A stretch of DNA of 27,457 bases from Candidatus Woesearchaeota archaeon (GCA_964598985.1 CAZRDP010000001.1:99730-127186); one strand, 5' to 3'; positions 1,317 through 27,457 are shown, counted from the stretch's first letter. Translations and numbers: made by a program. Notes: generated by a model not told the origin, from the letters alone.

Positions 1317-2336
1317 ATGCTGAAAGAAATAAAAGGAAAGAGAATCTTAATTACCGGCGGAGCAGGATTTTTAGGAAGAGCGTTGACAAGAGAGTTATTG
1401 AAATATGAACCTCAAAGTATAAGAATCTTCAGCAGAGACGAATTTAAGCATTATAAAATGAGCCAGGAATTTGGGCTTGAAAGCACGAAAGGACCGCTAA
1501 GATTTTTGCTCGGCGACGTAAGAGATTATGAAAGATTAAAAAGAGCGACGAAAGGATGCGATATTGTTATACATGCTGCAGCTCTGAAAAGAATTGACAT
1601 GATTGAATACAACGTCGGAGAAGCGATAAACACAAACGTTTTCGGAAGTTTAAATGTTATGAAAGCATGCATTGAAAATAATGTAAAAAAAGTAGTATTC
1701 GTTTCAACGGATAAAGCGTGTCTGCCGATTAATACTTATGGTGCAACAAAATTTCTGGCAGAAAGAATTTTTATTGAAGGGAATTACAGCAAAGGTAAAT
1801 CTCCGACGTGTCTTGTGGGGGTAAGATATGGCAATGTTATAAACAGCACAGGTTCAGTCATTCCGTTTTTTTTGGAGAAAATAAATAAAGGGGAGCCTTT
1901 GCCAATCACCGACGATAGAATGACGCGTTTTTTAATAACTGATAAACAGGCAGTAAATTTAATTTTCAATGCAATACTACATGGTGAAGGAGGAGAAATT
2001 TTCGTTCCGAAGTTGCCTTCATTCAATATTAAAGAGTTGGCAAAAGGATTATGTGATTTAAAAGGAAAACCTTTCAAATATGAAATTTCCGGTATAAGAC
2101 CCGGCGAAAAATTACATGAATTTATGGTCAACGAAGCTGAAAGCATAAGAGCAAAAGAATTCCAGAATTTTTTTGTGATAACATCGGAAGTCGAAAAATA
2201 TATTAAGAAAAAAAATAAATTTTTAGAAAAAGGGAAACCAATGACAAAAAAAACTTACAGTTCTGAAGATTCATTAATTTCGGGAAACGAATTATTGGAA
2301 TATCTTAAAAAGATTAAAATTTTGGATAAAGAATGA
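1317..2336 (+). CDS. pseB: UDP-N-acetylglucosamine 4,6-dehydratase (PseB/FlaA1-like, Polysacc_synt_2)
   Basis: TGGAGFLG, FSRDEFKH, HAAALK, STDKACLPINTYGATK, RYGNV..S.GSVIP, TDDRMTRF, GIRPGEKLHE. Confidence 0.88.
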   Translation: MLKEIKGKRILITGGAGFLGRALTRELLKYEPQSIRIFSRDEFKHYKMSQEFGLESTKGPLRFLLGDVRDYERLKRATKGCDIVIHAAALKRIDMIEYNVGEAINTNVFGSLNVMKACIENNVKKVVFVSTDKACLPINTYGATKFLAERIFIEGNYSKGKSPTCLVGVRYGNVINSTGSVIPFFLEKINKGEPLPITDDRMTRFLITDKQAVNLIFNAILHGEGGEIFVPKLPSFNIKELAKGLCDLKGKPFKYEISGIRPGEKLHEFMVNEAESIRAKEFQNFFVITSEVEKYIKKKNKFLEKGKPMTKKTYSSEDSLISGNELLEYLKKIKILDKE

Positions 2337-3235
2337 AAATCCTCATAACAGGCGCGAAAGGACTTCTCGGTTCAAATTTATGCCTCATGTATTCTGAAAA
2401 AAATGAAGTTATAGCGACTGGAATAAACAAACCGGATTTTAATTTCTGCAAAAATTATGAAATGGATATAACAAAAAAAAAGGACTTGAAAATTATTGAA
2501 AAAGAAAAACAGGACTTAGTTATAAATTGCGTCGCTATAACAGATATGACTCTTTGCGAGGATAATCCAAAATTAGCTGAAGATGTAAACGCTTTTGGCG
2601 CAAAGAATCTTGCAGAAATTTGCAAAGATAATAACATTTTTTTTATTCACATTTCAACCGACGCTGTGTATGGTGACGGGAAAGGAAATTATAATGAAAA
2701 AGATAAAACAAACCCTTTGGGAGTTTAGGGAAAAACAAAATTATGGGGGGAAAAATATGTTGAAGAAATCGGAGGAAAATACGCCATTGTAAGAACAACC
2801 ATATACGGTTGGAATCACCTTGATAAATTTAGTTTGGGCGAATGGGTTTTGGATAAACTTGAAAAAAATGAAACTTTCAAAGGATTTACGGATATAAAAT
2901 TTACACCAATATTGACGACTAATCTTGGAGAAGCATTGTTAGAAATATACCATAAAAATTTTAATGGGATTTTGAATGTTGCGAGTCCGGATGTCTGCAC
3001 TAAATACGAATTTGCAAAAAAGATTGCAGAGGTTTTTGGAAAAAATTCTAATTTGGTTACGCCTGCTTCTTCGGATGAATTTAATTTTAAAGCAAAAAGG
3101 GCAAAAGACATGTATTTGAATTGTGATAAGGCGCAGAGATTATTGAAGACAAAACTTCTTAATGTAGAAGATGGTCTGAAAGAATTCAAAAATCTAAGAG
3201 AAGATGGATTTTTGGAGAGATTAAAGAATATATAA
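2333..3235 (+). pseudogene. RmlD-like (dTDP-4-dehydrorhamnose reductase family) SDR, 300 codons with one in-frame TAG at 2726-2728
   Basis: ORFs 2333..2728 and 2834..3235 share a frame. Read-through gives GAKGLLG...HISTDAVYGD...NPLGV*GKTKLWGE...VRTTIYG...FTPILTTNL..., so the TAG replaces the Tyr of YxxxK. Confidence 0.85.
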
Positions 3236-17513: not shown

Positions 17514-18221
17514 ATGGAAAAAATAAATGAAAAAGAAAGTAAAATTGTGTTCAGAGCGGAAATTGAAGACAGCCTTGCCAACGCAATAAGAAGGTCCATT
17601 TTCTTAATTCCCGTCGCTGCTGTCGATGAAGTTGAAATTTCAAAAAATGATTCGCCTTTGTACGACGAAACGATTGCACACAGAATAGGTCTTATCCCTA
17701 TAAAACACAGCGCAAAAAAAGAAGGGAAATTAAAATTGAAATCAAGCAGAGAAGGTTTTGTTTATTCAGGGGACATGGAAGGAGATGTGAAAGTTGTTTA
17801 TGATAAAATTCCAATTACTCTTTTGAGCAAAGGACAGGAAATAGAATTAACAGCGACGACAAAATTAGGAAAGGCATCTGAACACTCAAAATTTTTGCCC
17901 GGATTATTTGTTTACAGAATTGCTTATGAATTAATAGTTGATAAAGATGTTGCGGAAAAAGTTAAACAAATTGCGCCGTATGCTGAAGTAAATATTAAGG
18001 GAAATAAAGCAGTAATTTTGGATAATAAAGAAAGAGAGGTTGCTGATATTTGCGAGGGTATTTGCGATAAGGAAGGAAAGGAGATGGAGGTTAAACCCAC
18101 GAAAGAATTGGTTATAACAATTGAATCGTTCGGGCAGATTGGAGTTAAAGATATTTTTACAAAAGCAGTTGATGCTTTGAAGAATGAACTTAATGAGTTT
18201 TCTAAAAAGTTAAGCAAATAA
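17514..18221 (+). CDS. rpoD: DNA-directed RNA polymerase subunit D (Rpo3)
   Basis: LANAIRR, NDSPLYDETIAHRIGLIP, LLSKGQEI, G...EHSKF.PG, IESFGQ. Confidence 0.94.
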   Translation: MEKINEKESKIVFRAEIEDSLANAIRRSIFLIPVAAVDEVEISKNDSPLYDETIAHRIGLIPIKHSAKKEGKLKLKSSREGFVYSGDMEGDVKVVYDKIPITLLSKGQEIELTATTKLGKASEHSKFLPGLFVYRIAYELIVDKDVAEKVKQIAPYAEVNIKGNKAVILDNKEREVADICEGICDKEGKEMEVKPTKELVITIESFGQIGVKDIFTKAVDALKNELNEFSKKLSK

Positions 18222-18223
18222 GG

Positions 18224-18317
18224 TATTTCAGTTTAGAAATTTTGCAAAAAAAATATGTTTTCACGACGAGGAATTTTCATGAGTTATTTCAGCACGAAAA
18301 TTTTGCAAAAAAAATAT
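18224..18317. repeat. Two-copy direct repeat (61-bp period) containing the palindrome TTTTGCAAAA
   Basis: aaattttgcaaaaaaaatat at 18237-18256 and 18298-18317, each preceded by tatttcag. Confidence 0.85.
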
Positions 18318-18348
18318 CCTCACAACAAAATGAAGGAGGATATTTTTT
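18309..18348. terminator. Bidirectional terminator-like hairpin between rpoD and the island
   Basis: 13-bp stem aaaaaatatcctc/gaggatatttttt with a 14-nt loop. Confidence 0.65.
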
Positions 18349-18352
18349 AAGG

Positions 18353-18631
18353 TTATTTACATACTAATTCTCCGGGATAAATCAATAGTTTACCGAAAAT
18401 ACCAATGCAAAGAACTACTGCCTGGATTACTGCTGAAAGGACATGAGCATCTTGAGATAATTTTTCACCTTCTTTGCAAAAACTAATGCCGTGATCATCA
18501 TCTAAAAAAATAAACGAAGAAATTATGTAAAAAAGAACTGCATAATCTAACCTCCAAAAAAGTCCTAGAGGTATATAGATTATTGAAAGAATTCCCAAAC
18601 ATACCCAATTATTGCTTAATATTGTTTTCAT
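18353..18631 (-). CDS. Small membrane protein (about 3 TM)
   Basis: 92 aa hydrophobic ORF with an AT-rich leader like those of neighbouring island genes. Confidence 0.6.
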   Translation of the reverse strand: MKTILSNNWVCLGILSIIYIPLGLFWRLDYAVLFYIISSFIFLDDDHGISFCKEGEKLSQDAHVLSAVIQAVVLCIGIFGKLLIYPGELVCK

Positions 18632-18674
18632 AACTTTAAATTTTAGAGATTAATATTATTTGATTATATGTTGT

Positions 18675-18690
18675 TTCGTTTTAAAACGAA
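18675..18690. promoter_or_regulatory. Perfect 16-bp palindrome (candidate operator)
   Basis: ttcgttttaaaacgaa, in the position equivalent to the inverted repeat in modules 19283 and 20308. Confidence 0.45.
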
Positions 18691-18710
18691 TTATTATTTT
18701 CGTAAGAAAA

Positions 18711-18732
18711 GAAAACCTCCGAAGAGGTTTTC
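18711..18732 (-). terminator. Intrinsic terminator-like hairpin
   Basis: gaaaacctc-cgaa-gaggttttc, followed by a T-rich tract on the minus strand. Confidence 0.7.
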
Positions 18733-18752
18733 GAAAGTTTTACATTGACTTT

Positions 18753-19247
18753 TTAATTCCGGTTATTCTGAATCATTTTTACAAATCTTTCATAATCGGT
18801 TTCTCCGGCAGATTTCAGGTTGTTTTCAGTCGCAGATTTTAACGATGTTTTTGTTGCAGACCCGTGACCACAATTGGAAACAAACCCAGACAATTCAAGT
18901 TCAACATTATCACCGTCCATATAATCGCGTTTTTTATTTACCTCTCCGGTAAATTTGAAATTAATCGGGCTGGTGAAAAATTCAATTTTGAAATGATTCC
19001 CGTCAATTTCGGACATCGGTCCAAACTGGCTGTAACCGCTTCCGTCGGAAAAGGAAAAGTTTCCGTACAAATTTTCTCCGTTTTGTTCAACGTTCCGGAA
19101 GTGAAAATTAAAAGTTTGGTCGCTCAAAACAAAGCTTCCAGAAAAATCTCCTTCAAGAGGCAGAACGGAATCTTCTTTTTCGCACGAAGTGAAAATAGCT
19201 GTTGAAAAAACAACCGCAATAATTGAAAATAAAACACGTGTTTTCAT
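18753..19247 (-). CDS. Bacteroidota-type lipoprotein
   Basis: Signal peptide II MKTRVLFSIIAVVFSTAIFTS-C followed by the acidic tract EKED. Confidence 0.75.
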   Translation of the reverse strand: MKTRVLFSIIAVVFSTAIFTSCEKEDSVLPLEGDFSGSFVLSDQTFNFHFRNVEQNGENLYGNFSFSDGSGYSQFGPMSEIDGNHFKIEFFTSPINFKFTGEVNKKRDYMDGDNVELELSGFVSNCGHGSATKTSLKSATENNLKSAGETDYERFVKMIQNNRN

Positions 19248-19282
19248 AATGTAAATTTTTAATAGTTAAAAATAATTTACTT

Positions 19283-19383
19283 ATTGATTGACCATTATAT
19301 ATTGACCTTGCTACAAAAATTTGTGCAGGATGTGAATTTTCGTAAGAAAAAACTCCTTCAAAAAAGAAGGAGTTTTGAAATGT
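19283..19383 (-). repeat. About 100-bp intergenic module M1 (terminator + inverted repeat + ttgacc direct repeats)
   Basis: First 49 bp identical to 20308-20356; hairpin aaaactccttc/gaaggagtttt at 19349-19376. Confidence 0.92.
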
Positions 19384-19398
19384 AGTAGGTGAATGTTA

Positions 19399-20271
19399 CT
19401 ATTCATCTTCTTTTTCCATTGCTGGAGATGATTCCGCCATCTTCATTGGAAGGTCCCCTACAATTAATGTCGGAGAAATGCCTTTTTCAGTGATAATGAT
19501 CTTTGTATTGTCTTCGAGAGACGCCTGAAGAACCTCCCATTGCTTAAGGATTTGGGAGTTTCCGGTGAAAGTTTTGTTAACAAGTTCAAATGCTTTTGCT
19601 TTTCCCTGGGCCTCTAAGATTCTTGATTGTTTCTCCCCCTCCGCTATTTTGATAGCAGCCCTTCTTTTCCCATCTGCTTCTGTTTCAGCAGCAGTGGCAA
19701 AATCTCTTGCGGCGTCTTTTTCATTCTCTGCCTTAATCACTTTATTCATTGTCTCCTGAACATCACTTGGAGGGTTAATCTCCTTTAATTCAACACGAAC
19801 AATGTTGACCCCCCAGCTTTCGGTTTCTCCATCCATTGTTTTGGCAAGTTTTTTGTTTAAATCATTCCGTTTGGAATTAACATCTCGGAACGGCATATCG
19901 CCAATCACATTTCTCGCGGTTGTCTGAGCTAATACAATAATTTGATCTTCCACATCATTTACATTGTATAGCGCATTCTTCAGGTTTTCTTCATCTCCTT
20001 TGATTTTATAAAAAACCACCAGGTCAACTTTAGCATTGAGATTATCTTTAGTGATAATCTCTTGAGGATCAACATTCGCCATTCTCTCGGTGACATTCAT
20101 TTTAATCATTCTTTGAATAAACAAAAAGATAAAATGAATGCCCGGATTTGCAAACTTAGAGTATTTCCCTAAAGTTTCGATGGCGGCTCTTTGCGTTGGT
20201 CTAACAACCCGGATTCCTACTATTAAATAAAATCCGAGTACCGACAATAAAATAATTAATGTTAAATTCAT
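19399..20271 (-). CDS. SPFH/band-7 (stomatin/prohibitin-like) membrane protein
   Basis: N-terminal TM, ETLGKY...PG, QEIITKDN...VD.VVFYKI, RNVIG, RVELKEI.PP, coiled coil. Confidence 0.9.
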   Translation of the reverse strand: MNLTLIILLSVLGFYLIVGIRVVRPTQRAAIETLGKYSKFANPGIHFIFLFIQRMIKMNVTERMANVDPQEIITKDNLNAKVDLVVFYKIKGDEENLKNALYNVNDVEDQIIVLAQTTARNVIGDMPFRDVNSKRNDLNKKLAKTMDGETESWGVNIVRVELKEINPPSDVQETMNKVIKAENEKDAARDFATAAETEADGKRRAAIKIAEGEKQSRILEAQGKAKAFELVNKTFTGNSQILKQWEVLQASLEDNTKIIITEKGISPTLIVGDLPMKMAESSPAMEKEDE

Positions 20272-20307
20272 AACTTTAAAATTTAATCGTTAATACTAAA
20301 AATAAAA

Positions 20308-20407
20308 ATTGATTGACCATTATATATTGACCTTGCTACAAAAATTTGTGCAGGATATGAATTTTCAAAGAAAAAACTCCTTCAAAAGTGAAGGAGTTTT
20401 TTGAATG
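20308..20407 (-). repeat. About 100-bp intergenic module M2
   Basis: Near-identical to M1; 14-bp stem aaaaaactccttca/tgaaggagtttttt at 20371-20402. Confidence 0.92.
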
Positions 20408-20435
20408 TTAAATTATTAAATTGTTAATTTCGGAA

Positions 20436-21032
20436 TCACCATCGGGGTAATTCCCATCGGTTTTCATCGTATACAAAAATTTGTTTTCCTATCCAAATGG
20501 CATATGTCGGAGTCCCGTAATTCTTCACTTTGTTGATTGCAACATTTTCACCGTCCTCTGATTCAATAATCTGGTATGGATATTCAACAGACAATTGACT
20601 TCCACTCTCAAATTTCCAGACCAGCGACGGGAATTTGAATTCCGAAGAATATTCGTATAAATTACGATGCTCTTCATCGGTTGCGTAACAACATTCCTTT
20701 AATCTCAAAAGGATAATTGTTTCTGAATACACCGGCTCATAAATTTTATCCTTTTCAAGAGGTTTCATGAAGAAATCATTATCTCCTCCGGGAACTTCCA
20801 TGTAATACGTATCCAGGAAATCCTTTGCATACCCCTGAACAGAAACTTGAGGAATTTCTTCCACAATTTCAACTGGCACAGGTGTTTTATGCCAGGGCCA
20901 TTTGAACTGCAAATCAGGATTAACCATTAAGATTGTGACAAAAACAACAGGGGCAACCCCCAGTGATATGGTGGCTACAATTAAAACCCGTCTCCAAACA
21001 GAGAATTTTTCTTTTTTTTCATTTTGTGTCAT
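20436..21032 (-). CDS. Hypothetical protein with an N-terminal TM anchor
   Basis: 198 aa, one hydrophobic segment, AGGA 8 nt before the ATG. Confidence 0.7.
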   Translation of the reverse strand: MTQNEKKEKFSVWRRVLIVATISLGVAPVVFVTILMVNPDLQFKWPWHKTPVPVEIVEEIPQVSVQGYAKDFLDTYYMEVPGGDNDFFMKPLEKDKIYEPVYSETIILLRLKECCYATDEEHRNLYEYSSEFKFPSLVWKFESGSQLSVEYPYQIIESEDGENVAINKVKNYGTPTYAIWIGKQIFVYDENRWELPRW

Positions 21033-21040
21033 AATACACG

Positions 21041-21065
21041 TCCTTTCTTTATTTTAAGTTAAAGT
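21041..21065 (-). repeat. 25-bp stop/RBS junction repeat, copy 1 (copy 2 at 21628-21652)
   Basis: tcctttctttattttaagttaaagt is identical at both gene junctions. Confidence 0.9.
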
Positions 21066-21619
21066 AAAAATCCTATAGAAAATCCGGCTGTACCAATATC
21101 CCATTTATCATCTGCATCGCTGTCAATGTTTACCTTGGAATATTTTGCCTCAATATACAATTCTACTCCCCTAAAAAGGGAAATTGAATAACCGATTCTT
21201 CCCTCAATGCCAATTCCATTTTTTGAAGAAGTTTCGGTTACGGACTGACTATTTCTAATTATTTCCTCATCCAATACAATGGAAACAAATACAGGTGCTG
21301 CACCGATGTAAAAGTTTGCGGGATGATAGTCAAACCAGATTGCAAGTTCGTGATAACCTAAGTCTTCTGTTTCACTCAAAGTTTTCCAATGCGAGGAAGC
21401 AAAAAGTGATGCGGTGAGATTCTTTTGAACTTCAAGCCCATAACTTACTTCCAATCCCAACATTGCACCTACATCTTCGATTCTGGAATTATTGAAAGAC
21501 CGTTCAGAGAAACCTACTTTTACAAATTTATCTTTTTTCTCAGAACTCGTTGAATCCTGCGCTTTAATTTCTACTGAAAAAATAAGCGCGATAAACGTAA
21601 TTAAAATTAAATTTTTCAT
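21059..21619 (-). CDS. Signal-peptide protein with outer-membrane beta-barrel-like pattern
   Basis: SPI ending IKA-Q; alternating amphipathic strands (GLEVSYG, GIEGRIGYSI, LYIEAKYS, AGFSIGFLL). Confidence 0.65.
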   Translation of the reverse strand: MKNLILITFIALIFSVEIKAQDSTSSEKKDKFVKVGFSERSFNNSRIEDVGAMLGLEVSYGLEVQKNLTASLFASSHWKTLSETEDLGYHELAIWFDYHPANFYIGAAPVFVSIVLDEEIIRNSQSVTETSSKNGIGIEGRIGYSISLFRGVELYIEAKYSKVNIDSDADDKWDIGTAGFSIGFLL

Positions 21620-21651
21620 TTTAATTTTCCTTTCTTTATTTTAAGTTAAAG

Positions 21652-24018
21652 TTACTCCACAATTATTTTTTGTGAAAAAGAGCTTTTGTCTGCAATAAAT
21701 TGCAGCAGATACATCCCGGGTTTAATTTCCGGCAAAGAGAATTCAAAATAGGACGGCACATTTTCAGATTCAGATATTACCTGCCCGCTTAAAGAAGTCA
21801 TCCTAAAAGAAAGTTTATTTGAATTATGACAAATGAACAAAACTTCATTCACGGGATTCGGATAAACCTGAACTGAATTCAGCGAACCATCTATTTCTAT
21901 TCCGTTAACCGAAGAATTCTGAATGATTACTGCTGAAACATTTATTTCCCCCGATGAAACGAAAATCGTGGCAATCCTTGAACTCTCAGAATCATTGCGT
22001 GTAAATGTTGCAGTTATGGTGTCGTCATAAATTCCTTCAAAAGGATTTACGGTTAACCATTCAGCGTCGTCGGATATTTCCCAACCGGAATTGGAATTAA
22101 TGCTCAAAAAAATACTCCCTGCATCCGGAGGCACTTCCTGATAATCCGGCGTGATATACAGAGTTACAGCATCAGGTTCTGATTGAGTTAAAGTTACGGT
22201 TTCTGATACTCCGGAACCCGACGCTGTAATGTTAGCAGTGCGGGAATTTGTTGAAGAATTTGCATCATAAGAAACACTTATTGTACTGCCGTCGACTTTT
22301 GTTGCAGTCAACCAGGATGCATCATCGGAAACTGACCACACGACATTTGATGAAACTTCGAACGTTGCTGTTCCTGATGAAGAATTTACTGTTTTGCTGT
22401 TCGGAGAAACATTAATATAAAATGTCCCATTTTGAACAACCGTTACAACTTCGGATAAACCTCCGGTCCCATTCACTGTAATATTTGAAATGCGGGAATT
22501 TGTTGAAGTATTCTCGTTGTAATTTATTGTAATCGTGTAATCGTCGACTTTTGTTGCAGTCAACCAGGATGCATCGTCGGAAACATCCCAATAAACATTG
22601 GCACTTACATTAAATGAATTTGTTCCCGAAGACGAATTTACCTCCCGGGTATTCGGAGATACATCAAGATAAGCTTCAGAACCTGATTGAATCAAACTGA
22701 CGTTTTCAGAAACTCCGGAACCTGATGCACTTATATGGCCTGTTCTGGAATTCGAATATGGATTTTCGTCGTAAGTCACAGTTATTGTGCTTTCGTTTGT
22801 TTTCGTTGCAGTCAGCCAGGATACATCGTCGGAAACCGACCACACTACATTTGAATTTACATTGTAAGTAGTCGTGCCTGGTGATGAACCGACAGTTTTA
22901 CTGTTTGGATTCACGTCGAGATATAATGCAATCCCCGATTGAGTTAGTGTAACTGTTTCGAATATTCCCCCTGATGAAGCGGTTATATTCGCTGTTCTCG
23001 AAGACGTTGAAGAATTCTCGTTGTAACTTACAGTTATTGTGCCGCCGTCGGTTTTTGTTGCGGTTAACCATGATGCATCGTCAGAAACATTCCAGCTAAC
23101 ATTTGAACTTATATTAAAATAAGAGGTTCCCGAAGACGAATTTACTTCAAGGTTGTTTGGAGATACATCAATGGAAGGTGATGCTCCTGCTTGTTGCACA
23201 ATAACCGTTTCAGACAAGTAACTTGTATAAGCAGTTATATTGGCTCTACGTGAACTTGTTGAAGTATTCTCATTGTAACTTACAGTTATTGTGCCGCCGT
23301 CGGTTTTTGTTGCAGTTAACCATGATGCATCGTCGGAAACATCCCAGCTAACATTCGTATGTACTTCAAATACCCCTAATCCGGGTTGTGCACTTACAAT
23401 GGGAAGACCATCAGGGTCTACATCGAGATAAGAGTATTGAAAAGTTAACTTGGGTTTGTAAGTTGAACTTCCTTCTTTTGTATAAAAGAAACATGCATTC
23501 CCATCAGGAGTAATTTCTCCATCAATTATTCCAAACGGACTTAAGCCAAACCCGTGGTTTGAACGCCCCTCTTCTAACCATTGCTTAACTATTGGAGTCA
23601 TATTAATAGATAAACTGGTTCCTCCTGTTCCGGCAAAAAAATATTGATCGAAAAAGGAAGTATTAGGAGCATTATTCCACGTTACCGAACTCTCAGACCA
23701 AGATTGAGTAATTCTGAAAACCTCCCCCACGACACGTTCGACAGGAATTCCGGGATAATAGTATAGTTTTAATTCGGCACTATGCACGTGAACCTGCCCC
23801 GTGAAAGAACCAAGGTCAAATTTAAAAATTGGAGCGCATGCCCTCCCATCAGGTTCCAAACCAAGAGGAACTAAAGCATCATTTCCCCAATTAGATGAAG
23901 GAGCGGCTTCACTTAAAAATGCATCTGCGACAAGTGTGGCTACCCTCGTACTTTGGGAGATACAATTATTGAAAATTAAATTTCCAATAAATACTGAAAT
24001 TAAAATTAAATTTTTCAT
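21652..24018 (-). CDS. Secreted protein: DNRLRE-like domain + 6 BACON repeats + T9SS (Por) C-terminal sorting domain
   Basis: ADAFLSE...NWG...FKFDL...SAELKLY; six W.(V/I)SDD..WLT repeats; C-terminus VYPNPV..VLFI...SGQVI...GMYLLQ...QKIIVE. Confidence 0.85.
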   Translation of the reverse strand: MKNLILISVFIGNLIFNNCISQSTRVATLVADAFLSEAAPSSNWGNDALVPLGLEPDGRACAPIFKFDLGSFTGQVHVHSAELKLYYYPGIPVERVVGEVFRITQSWSESSVTWNNAPNTSFFDQYFFAGTGGTSLSINMTPIVKQWLEEGRSNHGFGLSPFGIIDGEITPDGNACFFYTKEGSSTYKPKLTFQYSYLDVDPDGLPIVSAQPGLGVFEVHTNVSWDVSDDASWLTATKTDGGTITVSYNENTSTSSRRANITAYTSYLSETVIVQQAGASPSIDVSPNNLEVNSSSGTSYFNISSNVSWNVSDDASWLTATKTDGGTITVSYNENSSTSSRTANITASSGGIFETVTLTQSGIALYLDVNPNSKTVGSSPGTTTYNVNSNVVWSVSDDVSWLTATKTNESTITVTYDENPYSNSRTGHISASGSGVSENVSLIQSGSEAYLDVSPNTREVNSSSGTNSFNVSANVYWDVSDDASWLTATKVDDYTITINYNENTSTNSRISNITVNGTGGLSEVVTVVQNGTFYINVSPNSKTVNSSSGTATFEVSSNVVWSVSDDASWLTATKVDGSTISVSYDANSSTNSRTANITASGSGVSETVTLTQSEPDAVTLYITPDYQEVPPDAGSIFLSINSNSGWEISDDAEWLTVNPFEGIYDDTITATFTRNDSESSRIATIFVSSGEINVSAVIIQNSSVNGIEIDGSLNSVQVYPNPVNEVLFICHNSNKLSFRMTSLSGQVISESENVPSYFEFSLPEIKPGMYLLQFIADKSSFSQKIIVE

Positions 24019-24036
24019 GATATAAAGTTTAGATTA

Positions 24037-24699
24037 TTAATTAGAACAAATTTTAATATTAATATCGTGCGGAGCAGTTTCGTGTCCGCCGAAGTAAGGA
24101 GATTCAAGCAAGGCGTGAACTTTTGCATTCGGAGTTTTTTGTTTGCTGATTGTAATTTCTGCAAATTCAAATGTATTCAGGTTTTGAACATAAAAATAAA
24201 AACCTTCTTCATTCAAATCTTCCACTATGCAAAATATTTCATCGCCAATTTTTACATCTGATAATAAAATTTTCTGGATGTGCCCGGATATGTCGGGTAA
24301 ATGGACAATGCAACCTACATCAATTTGATTTTCCGAAGGACAGCGCCATGTAATTCTCGCCGAGTATTTTAAAATATTTTTGGCGAGGATTTCTCCGTGG
24401 TTGCCGCAGACAATTCCGCGAATTTTATTGTGCCCGTTTACAAATTCCGCATCAGGATTGTAAAACATTGAACCGTCAACGGTAAAAGTAAAAGAAACTT
24501 TTAAGCCGTATCTTTGCAAATGCAAAATTTGAAATTCCTCCGGATTAAATCCTTCAGAATAATGTTGTCCGGATTTTATTAGATAATTATTGCATTCGCC
24601 AACTTCGGGCAAATCCGGAAATTTTTCACATGCAGGAAATAAAATTACAAAAAGAAAAGCGCCCAAAGAGAGCACTTTTCTAAGAAATAAATTTTTCAT
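24037..24699 (-). CDS. Bacteroidota-type lipoprotein, beta-sandwich-like
   Basis: Lipobox LFPA-C-EK; YLIKSGQHYS, SARITWR and PYFGGHETAPHDI recall an uncharacterised Bacteroidota family (from memory, not searched). Confidence 0.7.
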   Translation of the reverse strand: MKNLFLRKVLSLGAFLFVILFPACEKFPDLPEVGECNNYLIKSGQHYSEGFNPEEFQILHLQRYGLKVSFTFTVDGSMFYNPDAEFVNGHNKIRGIVCGNHGEILAKNILKYSARITWRCPSENQIDVGCIVHLPDISGHIQKILLSDVKIGDEIFCIVEDLNEEGFYFYVQNLNTFEFAEITISKQKTPNAKVHALLESPYFGGHETAPHDINIKICSN

Positions 24700-24708
24700 T
24701 TTGGATTT

Positions 24709-25269
24709 TTAAAATCTGTAAGAAAAACCTATTCGGTTCTCGTAATAAATCTCCCCTTCACGACGGGAATTTTTGCAGATGCTCTGATAAGCAACAAGAT
24801 TAACAGATGATCTTTTTTGTTTGCATCCAGATAATTCAGACCCGTGGCCGCGCCAGGAAAATAATTGAATACTTTCACGAAGGTAAATCGCTGCGGAGAA
24901 ATCACCTTCTTCAGGACCAGCATCCAAATCAGCCCCAAGCTTTCCGCCGACGCGAAAATCAATTCCGGACTTTTCACGGAACAGTGGAATCCTTAAAAAA
25001 AGAAAATCCGCGCCAGTTAGCAGGTTCATCCAATCGGTGTAATGTTGATAAGATAAAACCATATTAACTCTTGAATTTATTTCGCCGGAAAAACCAAGTT
25101 CCCAATTTCCCAGAAAATTTGGATTTGGATCAAGAGTTGATTCCAGTTCAATATACGGCCAAGCAGGTCCGACATTTTTATATCGGAATTCTTTTTTGGC
25201 AGGATACTGCGCATTTATTTCAATTGATGAAATTAGCGCAAGAATTAAAAAAACAATTTTTGTTTTCAT
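24709..25269 (-). CDS. Signal-peptide protein, outer-membrane beta-barrel-like
   Basis: SPI ending INA-Q; amphipathic strands; C-terminal IGFSYRF matches the aromatic-x-Phe beta-signal pattern. Confidence 0.7.
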   Translation of the reverse strand: MKTKIVFLILALISSIEINAQYPAKKEFRYKNVGPAWPYIELESTLDPNPNFLGNWELGFSGEINSRVNMVLSYQHYTDWMNLLTGADFLFLRIPLFREKSGIDFRVGGKLGADLDAGPEEGDFSAAIYLRESIQLFSWRGHGSELSGCKQKRSSVNLVAYQSICKNSRREGEIYYENRIGFSYRF

Positions 25270-25272
25270 AAT

Positions 25273-25854
25273 TTACTTTTTAAATTCAAGAATTTTCCCT
25301 ATTCCGGTTGGAGGAAGTTTGAAACCCAATTCTATTCTTGGGTCCCATTTGTCCTGCAAACCAGAATTAATCATAAACCCAATCTTTGTATAAAAAACCC
25401 GGTTGCCGTTGAAGCCAATGCAAAATGCATGTCCGTCGGATGTTCTATCAATAAAATTATTATCTGAAACTTTCAAAATTTCAGAATCTGCATTAGTTAT
25501 GTAATTATAACTCAAAAACAGAAAATCTGAATCTGAAAATTTCTTTAGATAGAAATTGACACCTCCTGAAAAAGAATGGAGGGGTATTCCGCACCATTCA
25601 GAGTATTTCCAGTATCCCTCAAATTCCAAGGGGCCGAAGACAATATAAGCATCCAGCGACGGAAAAAGCAATGTTCCCATACGTATTGAAGTCCCGCAAC
25701 TTACTGAAATCAACGGGACATCATAACATAAGTCATAATATTCTGAACATTTTTCTCTCAAAGCATTTTGGTTTCGGATGCTCGCGATATCATTTTGTGC
25801 GCCTACATTGTAAACACACAAAATAATTCCAAAAATCAAAATTATTTTTTTCAT
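25273..25854 (-). CDS. Signal-peptide protein, possible beta-barrel
   Basis: SPI ending VGA-Q; strands FSGGVNFYL, LFLSYNY, YTKIGF, IELGFKL. Confidence 0.6.
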   Translation of the reverse strand: MKKIILIFGIILCVYNVGAQNDIASIRNQNALREKCSEYYDLCYDVPLISVSCGTSIRMGTLLFPSLDAYIVFGPLEFEGYWKYSEWCGIPLHSFSGGVNFYLKKFSDSDFLFLSYNYITNADSEILKVSDNNFIDRTSDGHAFCIGFNGNRVFYTKIGFMINSGLQDKWDPRIELGFKLPPTGIGKILEFKK

Positions 25855-25865
25855 TGTGGTGAATT

Positions 25866-26000
25866 TTAAAAATTCTTACTCTTTTGACTTTTATCAAGGC
25901 TGCACATTATCCTTTTGAGGTGTTTTTCACTACCATCTTTTAAATTGTGAAAAGCAGGAACCTCTGCGGATAAAAACTGAGGAACGTTTTTTACTTTCAT
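25866..26000 (-). CDS. Possible small protein (44 aa, MKVKNVPQF...)
   Basis: Internal ATG with an AT-rich leader 10 nt after the upstream stop; the longer listed start overlaps another ORF. Confidence 0.35.
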   Translation of the reverse strand: MKVKNVPQFLSAEVPAFHNLKDGSEKHLKRIMCSLDKSQKSKNF

Positions 26001-26010
26001 GTTAATTAAG

Positions 26011-26148
26011 TTAGCGTTTTCTATAAAACAAAGAGCGGAGCGGCAAAGTAAAGGCCAGAAAAAGAATTGCAAAAACTCCTCTCCAGATTTTTAATTCCCA
26101 CAAAACATTTTTGAATGTTGTGAAAATTTTTTTAATCATTTTTTTCAT
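26011..26148 (-). CDS. Possible small single-TM protein (45 aa, MKKMIKKIF...)
   Basis: Internal ATG downstream of hairpin 26188-26226; one hydrophobic segment. Confidence 0.4.
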   Translation of the reverse strand: MKKMIKKIFTTFKNVLWELKIWRGVFAILFLAFTLPLRSLFYRKR

Positions 26149-26187
26149 ATGATTCAAATCAGAAGTGATTTTATAAGATTGAAAAAA

Positions 26188-26226
26188 GAAAACCTTTTCC
26201 CGACGGAAAAATGAGAAAAGGTTTTC
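26188..26226 (-). terminator. Terminator-like hairpin after the lipoprotein gene
   Basis: 12-bp stem gaaaaccttttc/gaaaaggttttc; nested ttttcc-cgac-ggaaaa alternative. Confidence 0.6.
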
Positions 26227-26246
26227 GCGTAAAAACACCCGATGAA

Positions 26247-27173
26247 CTATTCAATCCACGAATATCCGACGTAAATCGAAGTTATGTTAAACTGCTCGTT
26301 TCTTGAAACTCCGTATGCAACGCCGTTGATTTTTCTTACTTTTACCACGAACCTTCTTCCGGTGTAATCTCCTTTCGGAAAAGAATAGTTGAAAGATTCA
26401 TAAGCAGAATTATTGTAAACATCAAAACCAGAAGTTCCGCCGACGATTTTTCCGTACAGGACTTTTTCTGCACCCGTGTTTGATTCTTCAATTACTTCGA
26501 TGAAATACGGAAGTGAAGAACCCCACAAAACAGAAATTGTATCTGTGTTTGAATTTATATCCTTGTAAACAGGATATTTTGTCCATGCAGAATCGCCTCC
26601 GCCGAAGAAATATCTATTTGTGAAATCACTTTCAGACGCATTGTGGTTTTCAAAACCAACCGCGACATAATCCGGGCTGCTTCCAGTGTTGAAATCGTAG
26701 AAGAAATCAGCATGGTGGGTATTTTGAATTGTTGTGTCTCCGGGCTCGACGATTATTTCCGGGCAAATGGGTTGTGCCAATTCAAGATTTCCATCGCAAT
26801 CATAAACAAAGAAAGTGTCGCAACCCTCGGCATTATCCTCGTAAAACCAAATAGGATTGCACGGCTCTTCTCCGGGAGGAACAGAATCCTTACAACGGGT
26901 TTCATCAAAAATAATTTCATCACCGCGAAAAACCTGGAAGCGAATTTCGCCGAACCGGCAACTTTCCGTCGGTAAATCTGTTTCAGTAGATAAAACGCGG
27001 ACCTTTCCGTCGGAAGATACGGTTGTATCGCAAATAATTGTGATGTTATTATTTATGATTGTTGTATCTCCTCCTTGCTGGAGGGGTAAATAAATTTCGT
27101 AGATGTCCTCATCACATGCAAACACAATGAATGCAGTGAAAATACCAATTAAAAAATAATTTAACTTTTTCAT
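26247..27173 (-). CDS. Bacteroidota-type lipoprotein, Cys-containing N-half and beta-rich C-half
   Basis: MKKLNYFLIGIFTAFIVFA-C-DED; three DTT(I/V) motifs. Confidence 0.75.
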   Translation of the reverse strand: MKKLNYFLIGIFTAFIVFACDEDIYEIYLPLQQGGDTTIINNNITIICDTTVSSDGKVRVLSTETDLPTESCRFGEIRFQVFRGDEIIFDETRCKDSVPPGEEPCNPIWFYEDNAEGCDTFFVYDCDGNLELAQPICPEIIVEPGDTTIQNTHHADFFYDFNTGSSPDYVAVGFENHNASESDFTNRYFFGGGDSAWTKYPVYKDINSNTDTISVLWGSSLPYFIEVIEESNTGAEKVLYGKIVGGTSGFDVYNNSAYESFNYSFPKGDYTGRRFVVKVRKINGVAYGVSRNEQFNITSIYVGYSWIE

Positions 27174-27217
27174 TTCAAAATATTTAGATTAATTTTAATA
27201 CTAAAATATCTCGCACG

Positions 27218-27457
27218 CTACGCGAGTTCGCGAATCACCAAACCACCCGGATTGGAGTCACGCAGATCCTCAATCACGGCATTGGAATCCAAGTCCCCGA
27301 CGAAAACGCACCGAAAACAACCCTTGTCAGAAGGAACATAATGTGTTCTTCCGGAACCAGATTTTATATTAATTCCATACTCATCAACATCCTGAAAATT
27401 ATAGTTTCCGCTCTGAAAGGCAGTTGTTTGGGTGTAAATTGATTCTTCAGTTAAATA
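27218..27457 (-). CDS. 3' end of a gene running off the window; candidate DGR target with C-terminal variable region
   Basis: Open frame of 79 aa ending ...GCFRCVFVGDLDSNAVIEDLRDSNPGGLVIRELA* (TAG 27218-27220); not in the ORF track. Confidence 0.7.
   Translation of the reverse strand, partial: YLTEESIYTQTTAFQSGNYNFQDVDEYGINIKSGSGRTHYVPSDKGCFRCVFVGDLDSNAVIEDLRDSNPGGLVIRELA

Follow-up and report, generated by a model that had tools for sequence, protein, structure and literature searches.

Hypervariable islands of envelope genes at fixed hotspots, often beside tRNA genes, occur in Haloquadratum, Prochlorococcus, SAR11 and Alteromonas, and outer-membrane (OM)-type beta-barrels and the sorting domains of the type IX secretion system (T9SS) are regarded as distinctive of diderm bacteria and of organelles. 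Here we describe a stretch of 27,457 nt from a Candidatus Woesearchaeota archaeon (GCA_964598985.1, CAZRDP010000001.1:99730-127186; hereafter the window), in which a run of genes for lipobox proteins, barrel-type proteins and a protein with a T9SS C-terminal domain (CTD) adjoins rpoD, the gene for RNA polymerase subunit D. The run is linked to the archaeal chromosome, has diverged together with the core genes, is under purifying selection and is homologous to the arrays of relatives. Positions 18353-27457 are probably the local state of an old, fast-evolving array belonging to the archaeon, and its products are best read, with reasonable likelihood, as native, variable contact-surface proteins built partly from captured bacterial modules.

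Our literature search found no paper describing OMP-type barrels or T9SS CTDs in DPANN archaea. Lipoproteins are prevalent in DPANN and processed by the archaeal AliA/AliB pathway; dependence on AliA/AliB has been shown experimentally only in Haloferax, and AliA (arCOG02177) is reported in DPANN "with some gaps" (PMC12462473). New here are the family-level structure of the locus, the putative T9SS-CTD adhesin within the array, and a population-level test of linkage and selection.

Linkage of the array to the archaeal chromosome

The source genome (G000; its contigs are C1, C7 and so on) is assembled in 41 contigs totalling 695 kb, with 85% completeness and 0.9% contamination. Labels G013, G017, G018, G093 and G112 denote other genomes, L043 a 126-kb metagenome contig of a sister strain from the Joint Genome Institute (JGI), and L046 a locus from another species of the same genus. 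The window is gap-free and bounded at both ends by 10-N scaffold gaps in contig C1. Its left two thirds are archaeal core, with a nonulosonate/polysaccharide cluster, SecD/SecF, three tRNAs and the operon L21e-Rpb4-DUF655-S13-S4-S11-RpoD (Rpb3 type). The assignment to DPANN also holds, because a protein of a metagenome-assembled genome (MAG) of the same genus carries the NCBI name "Nanobdellota archaeon". From 18353 to the window end all genes lie on the minus strand and converge on rpoD. The preliminary description had placed co-oriented genes for three lipobox proteins, three signal-peptide proteins and a T9SS-CTD protein contiguous with rpoD, and these genes are real and intact, with coordinates and termini confirmed. 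The features are as follows (window coordinates unless a contig is named; ORF, open reading frame).

17514-18221, plus strand: rpoD (Rpb3-type RNA polymerase subunit D), Pfam RNA_pol_A_bac and RNA_pol_L; conserved core flank
18282-18621: strain-specific 340-nt indel with a 92-aa ORF (18353-18631, minus strand), no Pfam match
18753-19247, minus strand: lip164, lipobox protein (..IFTSC-EKED), from sequence
19283-19376, with a second copy at 20308-20400, no strand assigned: repeated intergenic module, copies 93-94% identical
19399-20271, minus strand: SPFH/Band-7 (HflK-like) membrane protein, Pfam Band_7 125.5 bits; TIGR01933 112 bits, below cut-off
20436-21032, minus strand: tm198, N-terminally anchored exported protein, distant member of the "GC-KKK-polyPro" family
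21059-21619, minus strand: omp186a, signal peptide (..IKAQ-D) and predicted 8-stranded OmpA/OmpX-type barrel
21652-24018, minus strand: 788-aa protein, signal peptide, DNRLRE (CBM96-like) domain, six BACON domains and T9SS type-A CTD
24037-24699, minus strand: lip220, lipobox protein (..LFPAC-EKF), from sequence
24709-25269, minus strand: omp186b, signal peptide (..INAQ-Y), beta-rich, ending FSYRF; barrel-like candidate
25273-25854, minus strand: omp193, signal peptide (..VGAQ-N) and eight predicted antiparallel strands; OmpA/OprF-N-like candidate
26247-27173, minus strand: lip308, lipobox protein (..IVFAC-DED), from sequence; distant kin of the genus lip350 family
27218-27457, minus strand: C-terminal part of a 318-aa array protein that continues beyond the scaffold gap
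G000:C1:133294-136417 (L043:280-3429): operon of x162 (162-aa coiled-coil protein), a 136-aa protein (x136) and a 657-aa HerA/FtsK-like ATPase, adjoining tRNA-Leu(CAA)

Beyond the gap the array goes on with a 448-aa membrane protein and, in L043, one more lipoprotein, and reaches the HerA-like ATPase and tRNA-Leu(CAA) (order from L043, tblastn to G000:C1). In place of the 340-nt indel, L043 and the Logan contigs of runs X2 and X3 have about 102 other bases; the 92-aa ORF in this strain-specific indel is probably not a conserved gene and not part of the gene set.

Bacterial-looking content starts directly next to rpoD, and a scaffold gap marks the contig end at which the island is placed; both speak for a chimeric contig or a binning contamination that joined Bacteroidota DNA to an archaeal contig. 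Against this, L043 has this gene set in unchanged order, starting in the ribosomal operon, continuing across the array and reaching the HerA-like ATPase and tRNA-Leu(CAA). Its identity to the window is 96.2% in the island (8,856 bases) and 95.6% in the core (5,658 bases). Logan contigs from one landfill run and one groundwater run span rpoD into lip164, and their word depth is equal on the two sides of the junction (core vs island: 16.1 vs 15.4 in the landfill run, 12.3 vs 12.7 in the groundwater run). The join is present in at least four independent assemblies from three species, and archaeal genes flank the array on both sides on contigs of 126-358 kb. In G013, rpoD is followed by an orthologue of lip164 (45% identity), and those of lip308, omp193 and lip220 stand in order on a second contig; in L046, rpoD (73% identical) is adjoined by an array with orthologues of omp186a (84%), omp186b (48%) and lip308 (51%). 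Across these two relatives the orthologues of array genes span 26-85% amino acid identity.

Synonymous codon usage and third-position GC content (GC3) of the island genes fall inside the spread of the source genome, with the 788-aa gene at the median. Ranked among chunks of the genome, the tetranucleotide distance of the island falls at the 93rd percentile, unusual without being extreme. The pooled pairwise ratio of non-synonymous to synonymous substitution rates (dN/dS) against L043 was 0.25 for the island and 0.16 for the adjoining core; the frames are intact, as had been noted earlier, and under purifying selection. Since the same join recurs in independent assemblies with equal depth, equal divergence and matching codon usage, between archaeal flanks, a chimera is ruled out, its chance being negligible, and the rpoD-to-array join is a true chromosomal linkage and not an assembly artefact.

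A hypervariable array at a fixed site

Ten further species of the genus have the same layout: rpoD, a variable stretch of 2.2-12.5 kb (15.3 kb in the source genome), then the ATPase, the coiled-coil protein and tRNA-Leu(CAA). The layout recurs in G093, which belongs to another genus of the same family and is assembled in two contigs. rpoD shows 52-69% amino acid identity in all genus members and G093. At the other flank the ATPase, x162 and the tRNA are kept at 50-68% identity and in a fixed place in every genus member examined and in the second genus; the three recur together in at least ten genus species, and the ATPase and the 162-aa protein in G093. In the order of transcription, the conserved x162-x136-ATPase genes head the array. 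The ATPase (about 650 aa) is 57-68% identical across genus species to the copy of the source lineage; it gave weak matches to DUF87, CedD/HerA/Zot and phage terminase P-loop models and has a C-terminal winged helix-turn-helix (wHTH), and no membrane segments were seen by eye. A PDB sequence search with the ATPase and a PHROGs search with the array proteins returned no match.

Between these flanks, array contents mostly differ by species and the style is constant: lipobox proteins and signal-peptide beta-rich proteins of 140-290 aa, the latter often ending in F, W or L. The lipobox families of the genus arrays comprise the "GC-KKK-polyPro" family (lipPPP; 11 species), a 531-aa CBM96/DNRLRE family, a 215-aa family and a 350-aa family. 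Profile comparisons tied window genes to these families, namely omp186a to a genus 257-aa barrel family (E 3e-5), tm198 to the polyPro lipoproteins (E 1.7e-6), the N-terminus of the 788-aa protein to the 531-aa family (E 8.6e-9) and lip308 to the 350-aa family (E 7e-6). The arrays of L046 and G017 likewise hold Band_7 genes, and an SPFH protein is a frequent member of the arrays in general. A repeat of about 64 bp at 18622-18684 has a second, 86% identical copy 13 kb further along the array (G000:C1:131775-131838) and weak copies in many genus members.

The locus had been taken for a discrete island in one chromosome, which is not borne out: it is the local form of a family-level hypervariable array with the same flanks in relatives. 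A fixed site, conserved flanks and species-different content are those of a flexible genomic island, and the array further resembles such islands in its variable surface-gene content, tRNA proximity and small strain-level indel. It differs from them in having no glycosyltransferase or S-layer genes and in carrying OM-type barrels, lipobox proteins and a T9SS-CTD adhesin candidate instead; unlike them, it is always headed by the conserved HerA/FtsK-like ATPase operon.

Additional array-style genes, with ..AQ/..SQ/..GQ signal-peptide ends or lipoboxes, were seen at C4:39010-39816, C5:503-1319, C8:527-820, C13:3800-4837 and C24:2905-3348. Several of these lie at or near contig ends of the source genome, which suggests other spots of variable surface genes.

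Barrel-type proteins

Beta-barrel-like strands had been noted in three proteins, and the observation stands best for omp186a. Its match to Pfam OMP_b-brl (PF13505) is below the cut-off (17.8 bits vs a gathering score of 28.7); genus relatives score 22-25 bits, and G018, at 42.7 bits, is above it. OMP_b-brl matches were found in 4 of 24 genus genomes. The ESM Atlas model of omp186a (predicted template-modelling score, pTM, 0.73) has TM-scores of 0.69-0.80 to OMP_b-brl/OmpA_membrane/Opacity clusters, and the closest language-model neighbours are Bacteroidota barrel clusters (0.97-0.98); we predict an 8-stranded OmpA/OmpX-type barrel. A full HMMER search with a four-sequence profile returned barrel-only relatives of about 185 aa, and the three whose contigs were examined stand beside other array families or rpoD of the same archaeal genus. 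The alignment of this family (A2) shows the usual alternating last strand, FxGGLIFxF, with C-terminal F in 7 of 12 sequences and L in 5 of 12. The family occurs in 4 of 151 genomes sampled from the order, in three genera of one family; in a third genus, G112 carries a lone 208-aa member (C1:171248-171874; L055:9749-10375), whose neighbours to either side on its 302-kb contig are long ORFs resembling archaeal housekeeping genes.

For omp193, an OmpA/OprF-N-like candidate, support for a barrel is moderate. AlphaFold2 (AF2) gave, at low confidence, eight antiparallel strands (mean predicted local distance difference test, pLDDT, 52; pTM 0.54), with TM-scores of 0.55-0.64 to Atlas OMP_b-brl clusters and OprF-N, OmpA, Ail and OmpX as best PDB matches; orthologues are 42% identical in G013 and 31% in L046. 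omp186b is a barrel candidate on language-model features, its neighbours including OMP_b-brl/DUF6646 clusters (0.95-0.97); the AF2 model from a 4-sequence alignment was unusable (pLDDT 37), and a word-based homologue search matched only the protein itself. Synteny located its orthologues in L046 (ending SYRC) and in G013 (26%, ending LTLIL).

Like the OMP_b-brl proteins of diderms (OmpA N-domain, OmpX/Ail, OprF-N, NspA, Opa), the array barrels have a signal peptide, about 160 mature residues, eight predicted antiparallel strands and weak to clear PF13505 matches, with TM 0.7-0.8 for omp186a and with the source-genome proteins below the Pfam cut-off. They differ in that the C-terminal aromatic residue is variable and the source genome and its 23 relatives lack Omp85/BamA: PF01103 matched 0 of 24 genus genomes and 7 control diderms. 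In several array barrels the last strand is followed by a K-rich tail, and L or I is the final residue of many homologues.

A DNRLRE-BACON-CTD protein

The 788-aa protein has a Sec-type signal peptide (MKNLILISVFIGNLIFNNCISQ..., read from the translation), an NCBIfam DNRLRE match (86.6 bits), Pfam BACON_2/BACON matches and a C-terminal sorting domain recognised by both Por_Secre_tail (PF18962; 36.2 bits, cut-off 27; aa 718-787) and TIGR04183 (37.9 bits, cut-off 23). The BACON repeats (22168-23370) have a regular 252-nt tandem period with units 61-85% identical, and Logan contigs break or jump inside them, a hint that in other samples the copy number varies or the assembly has collapsed. The stretch of residues 197-774, which takes in the CTD, is 46% identical to P0009, whose contig neighbours are hybrid two-component regulators of a kind typical of Bacteroidota, and the named homologues of the protein come from Bacteroidales, Bacteroidota and Ignavibacteriae. 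A search of GTDB genomes for loci related to the protein found none.

The N-terminal DNRLRE domain is that of the genus' own lipoproteins (lip531/CBM96 family). Because the N-terminus matches these lipoproteins and the BACON+CTD block a Bacteroidota-type protein, the sequence points to a fusion of a native DNRLRE domain with a captured BACON+CTD block, and the product is a putative glycan-binding surface adhesin. The earlier suggestion of captured genes repurposed as adhesins fits this protein and its homology to a Bacteroidota-type contig protein. With the BACON-bearing T9SS type-A cargo of Bacteroidota it shares the Sec signal peptide, the run of BACON domains and, at the C-terminus, a Por_Secre_tail in which YPNP and G-Y-L motifs are present; it differs in coming from an archaeon, a cell not expected to have an outer membrane or T9SS, and in the DNRLRE domain shared with the archaeal lipoprotein family.

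Por_Secre_tail is present in 37 of 151 genomes sampled from the order (25 above cut-off), including a one-contig genome. The source genome has a second CTD gene (C7:25208-26665; L045:5209-6666; 43 bits), with a dockerin and a ..GYGQ signal-peptide end, adjoining Cys-rich proteins with C-terminal membrane anchors.

Lipobox proteins and export machinery

No orthologue of lip164, lip220 or lip308 has lost the lipobox Cys. It is kept in the G013 orthologue of lip164 (..LSSAC-KKED; lip164 dN/dS 0.25), in that of lip220 (47% identity; ..LFASC-EKI; lip220 dN/dS 0.26) and in the lip308 orthologues of G013 (43%), L046 and L043 (94%). The residues after the Cys vary (EKED/KKED, EKF/EKI, DEDI/ETEN/ERPN/TKEY), and the most conserved lipoprotein family of the genus has C-KKK. 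Conservation of the sorting signals is partial: the lipobox Cys is kept, whereas FSYRF becomes SYRC or LTLIL, the residues after the Cys change and K-rich tails occur.

The preliminary description had stated that an acidic lipoprotein export signal requires an outer membrane. This does not follow, because C-E-K/R lipobox proteins occur among core genes and because lipoproteins are reported to be widespread in DPANN and to rely on the archaeal AliA/AliB pathway. Two such proteins are flanked by core genes, one of 600 aa with a DNRLRE-like C-terminus (C1:25003-26805; ..NLSSC-ERPEFED) and one of 347 aa (C1:28945-29988; ..ALNSC-EKK); the neighbours of both resemble ribosomal protein and cell-division genes. 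Sorting signals by themselves do not call for bacterial machinery. With the AliA/AliB lipoproteins the array proteins share a Sec-type signal peptide and a conserved lipobox Cys, but processing by that pathway has been shown in Haloferax, and the array lipobox proteins are few in the source genome and clustered in the array.

Lgt (PF01790) and LspA (PF01252) were not found in the source genome (85% complete), and the same models matched 10 controls. SprA_N matched neither the source genome nor the control genomes, and other T9SS components were not searched. With Lgt and LspA missing from the source genome and Omp85 from the genus genomes, the proposal of bacterial (FCB, Fibrobacterota-Chlorobiota-Bacteroidota, or Bacteroidota-like) envelope features without outer-membrane machinery is upheld.

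Expression signals

Between -36 and -22 relative to the start codon, core genes of the source genome have a sharp A-rich/TTT/A-rich signal resembling a B-recognition element (BRE) and TATA box, as leaderless archaeal transcripts would be expected to show. Most of the nine island genes are operon-internal. The repeated intergenic module, read on the minus strand, has a terminator-like hairpin+T stem followed by a TATA-like ATATATAA box. In sister species, 13 array genes have GGAGG exactly 13 nt before the ATG; the array-specific upstream motifs of these species are GGAGGACAAAA (at -13), TTATTGTTTAA (between about -24 and -36) and a hairpin element, TCTG..CAGAACAA, 48-134 nt upstream, and none of the three occurs in the source genome's own array. 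The Bacteroidota -7 motif TAnnTTTG was found in 16% of array spacers vs 10% of core spacers, at no fixed distance, and a sigma-70 promoter scan gave chance level. To our knowledge, GGAGG Shine-Dalgarno sites are largely unused by Bacteroidota. The codons, GGAGG and the TATA-like box, without a positioned TAnnTTTG, argue for expression in the archaeon as far as sequence signals can indicate it. The run labelled as RNA (X13) is probably DNA and too sparse to speak on expression.

Bacterial-style terminators had been reported in the run. Clear hairpin+T sites do follow lip164, the SPFH gene and tm198, but terminator-like hairpins are not enriched (11 found vs 7.2 +/- 2.9 expected).

Other features of the window

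At 2333-3235 a gene for an RmlD-type reductase appears split, a 131-aa N-terminal ORF (2333-2728) being followed by another frame.

Discussion

If the array encodes native contact-surface proteins, they would be made in the archaeon and exported by its own Sec system, of which SecDF is encoded in the window. The lipobox proteins would be lipid-anchored by an archaeal (AliA-type) pathway, the DNRLRE-BACON-CTD protein may act at the cell surface as a glycan-binding adhesin, and the whole array could give a partner-dependent cell a contact surface that changes fast. Diderm FCB-group bacteria may be the source from which the barrels and the BACON+CTD block were captured; their "sorting signals" would then persist mainly as parts of the fold, the last barrel strand and the CTD beta-sandwich, and not through the beta-barrel assembly machinery (BAM) or T9SS. 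The barrels might reside in the archaeal membrane, in vesicles or in a partner membrane. Several observations weigh against this account. We know of no OMP_b-brl transmembrane barrel that assembles in a single archaeal membrane, and for that reason the account leaves the barrel destination unexplained. For two of the three barrel calls, omp193 and omp186b, the structural model is weak or unusable. The source genome has few lipobox proteins, and they cluster in the array (3 of 5 by strict pattern). Finally, 70 array genes of the genus with their own upstream spacer lack the core BRE/TATA signal (p 7e-8), so array genes appear to be expressed differently from core genes.

A host-directed toolkit would account for the bacterial folds having been kept. 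The archaeon would live on a diderm (Bacteroidota/FCB-type) partner, and exported proteins would insert into or act on the partner outer membrane as attachment points or pores for metabolite uptake. We consider this doubtful. In its favour are OMP_b-brl-type barrels with alternating strands and often a terminal F or W, under selection in a lineage without Omp85, the affinity of the BACON+CTD block to Bacteroidota-type proteins and the mainly Bacteroidota clusters around omp186a in the Atlas. Samples that contain the organism come from landfill, digesters, wastewater and manure, habitats rich in Bacteroidota, and quick gene turnover fits an arms race at a host interface. The literature leaves it open whether DPANN have hosts among bacteria, which gives room for such a partner (PMC8204110). 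On the other hand, BAM acts from the periplasmic side and insertion from outside would need to be spontaneous, the terminal aromatic is not kept among orthologues and homologues, and no SLT, M23 or Amidase_2 wall hydrolases were found in the source genome.

The preliminary description had gone further, with genes kept so that a Bacteroidota host would express or sort them once DNA or RNA had been delivered; the nearby DNA-pump-like ATPase might make such a delivery. The DNA-translocase-like ATPase heading the array, the lack of a core-type leaderless promoter and sorting signals seemingly designed for structures missing in the archaeon (outer membrane, BAM and T9SS) would suit such a scheme. 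It is nevertheless very improbable: TAnnTTTG is neither enriched nor positioned, the thirteen sister-species genes have GGAGG at -13, the intergenic module carries a TATA-like box, codon usage is that of the archaeal genome, and the ATPase shows no membrane segments by eye and is accompanied by no transfer machinery that we found. The same ATPase, with its weak CedD/HerA/Zot and terminase matches and wHTH, could instead mark an integrated mobile element or virus that entered at tRNA-Leu(CAA) with genes serving the element, a reading consistent with a tRNA-proximal, single-strand array of mainly orphan genes and with the mildly atypical tetranucleotide composition. This too is unlikely, if less so. 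The ATPase, x162 and the tRNA are conserved in place like core genes in two genera, no integrase domain was found among the array and flank genes scanned and no tRNA-Leu(CAA) fragment at the rpoD end, and codon usage is as in the genome. A recent single insertion is rejected, as the flanks behave as core genes and the array has diverged from the sister strain to the same extent as the core.

Native, variable contact-surface proteins thus remain the best reading, and the array offers candidate interface proteins for testing bacterial partners of some DPANN. There is a modest chance, well short of even, that a family-level DPANN lineage uses the array products to plug into a diderm partner's outer membrane, or places barrels in an archaeal membrane without BAM. 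The partner-membrane case would give the first molecular handle on an archaeon-bacterium episymbiosis, and either case would mean barrel biogenesis outside the known world of BAM and the sorting and assembly machinery (SAM). OM-type barrels that are fixed, selected and diversifying in archaea without BamA raise the question of how they are folded and where they are sent. For the organism itself, the locus shows a reduced genome that keeps one hotspot of surface innovation, fed by cross-domain gene capture.

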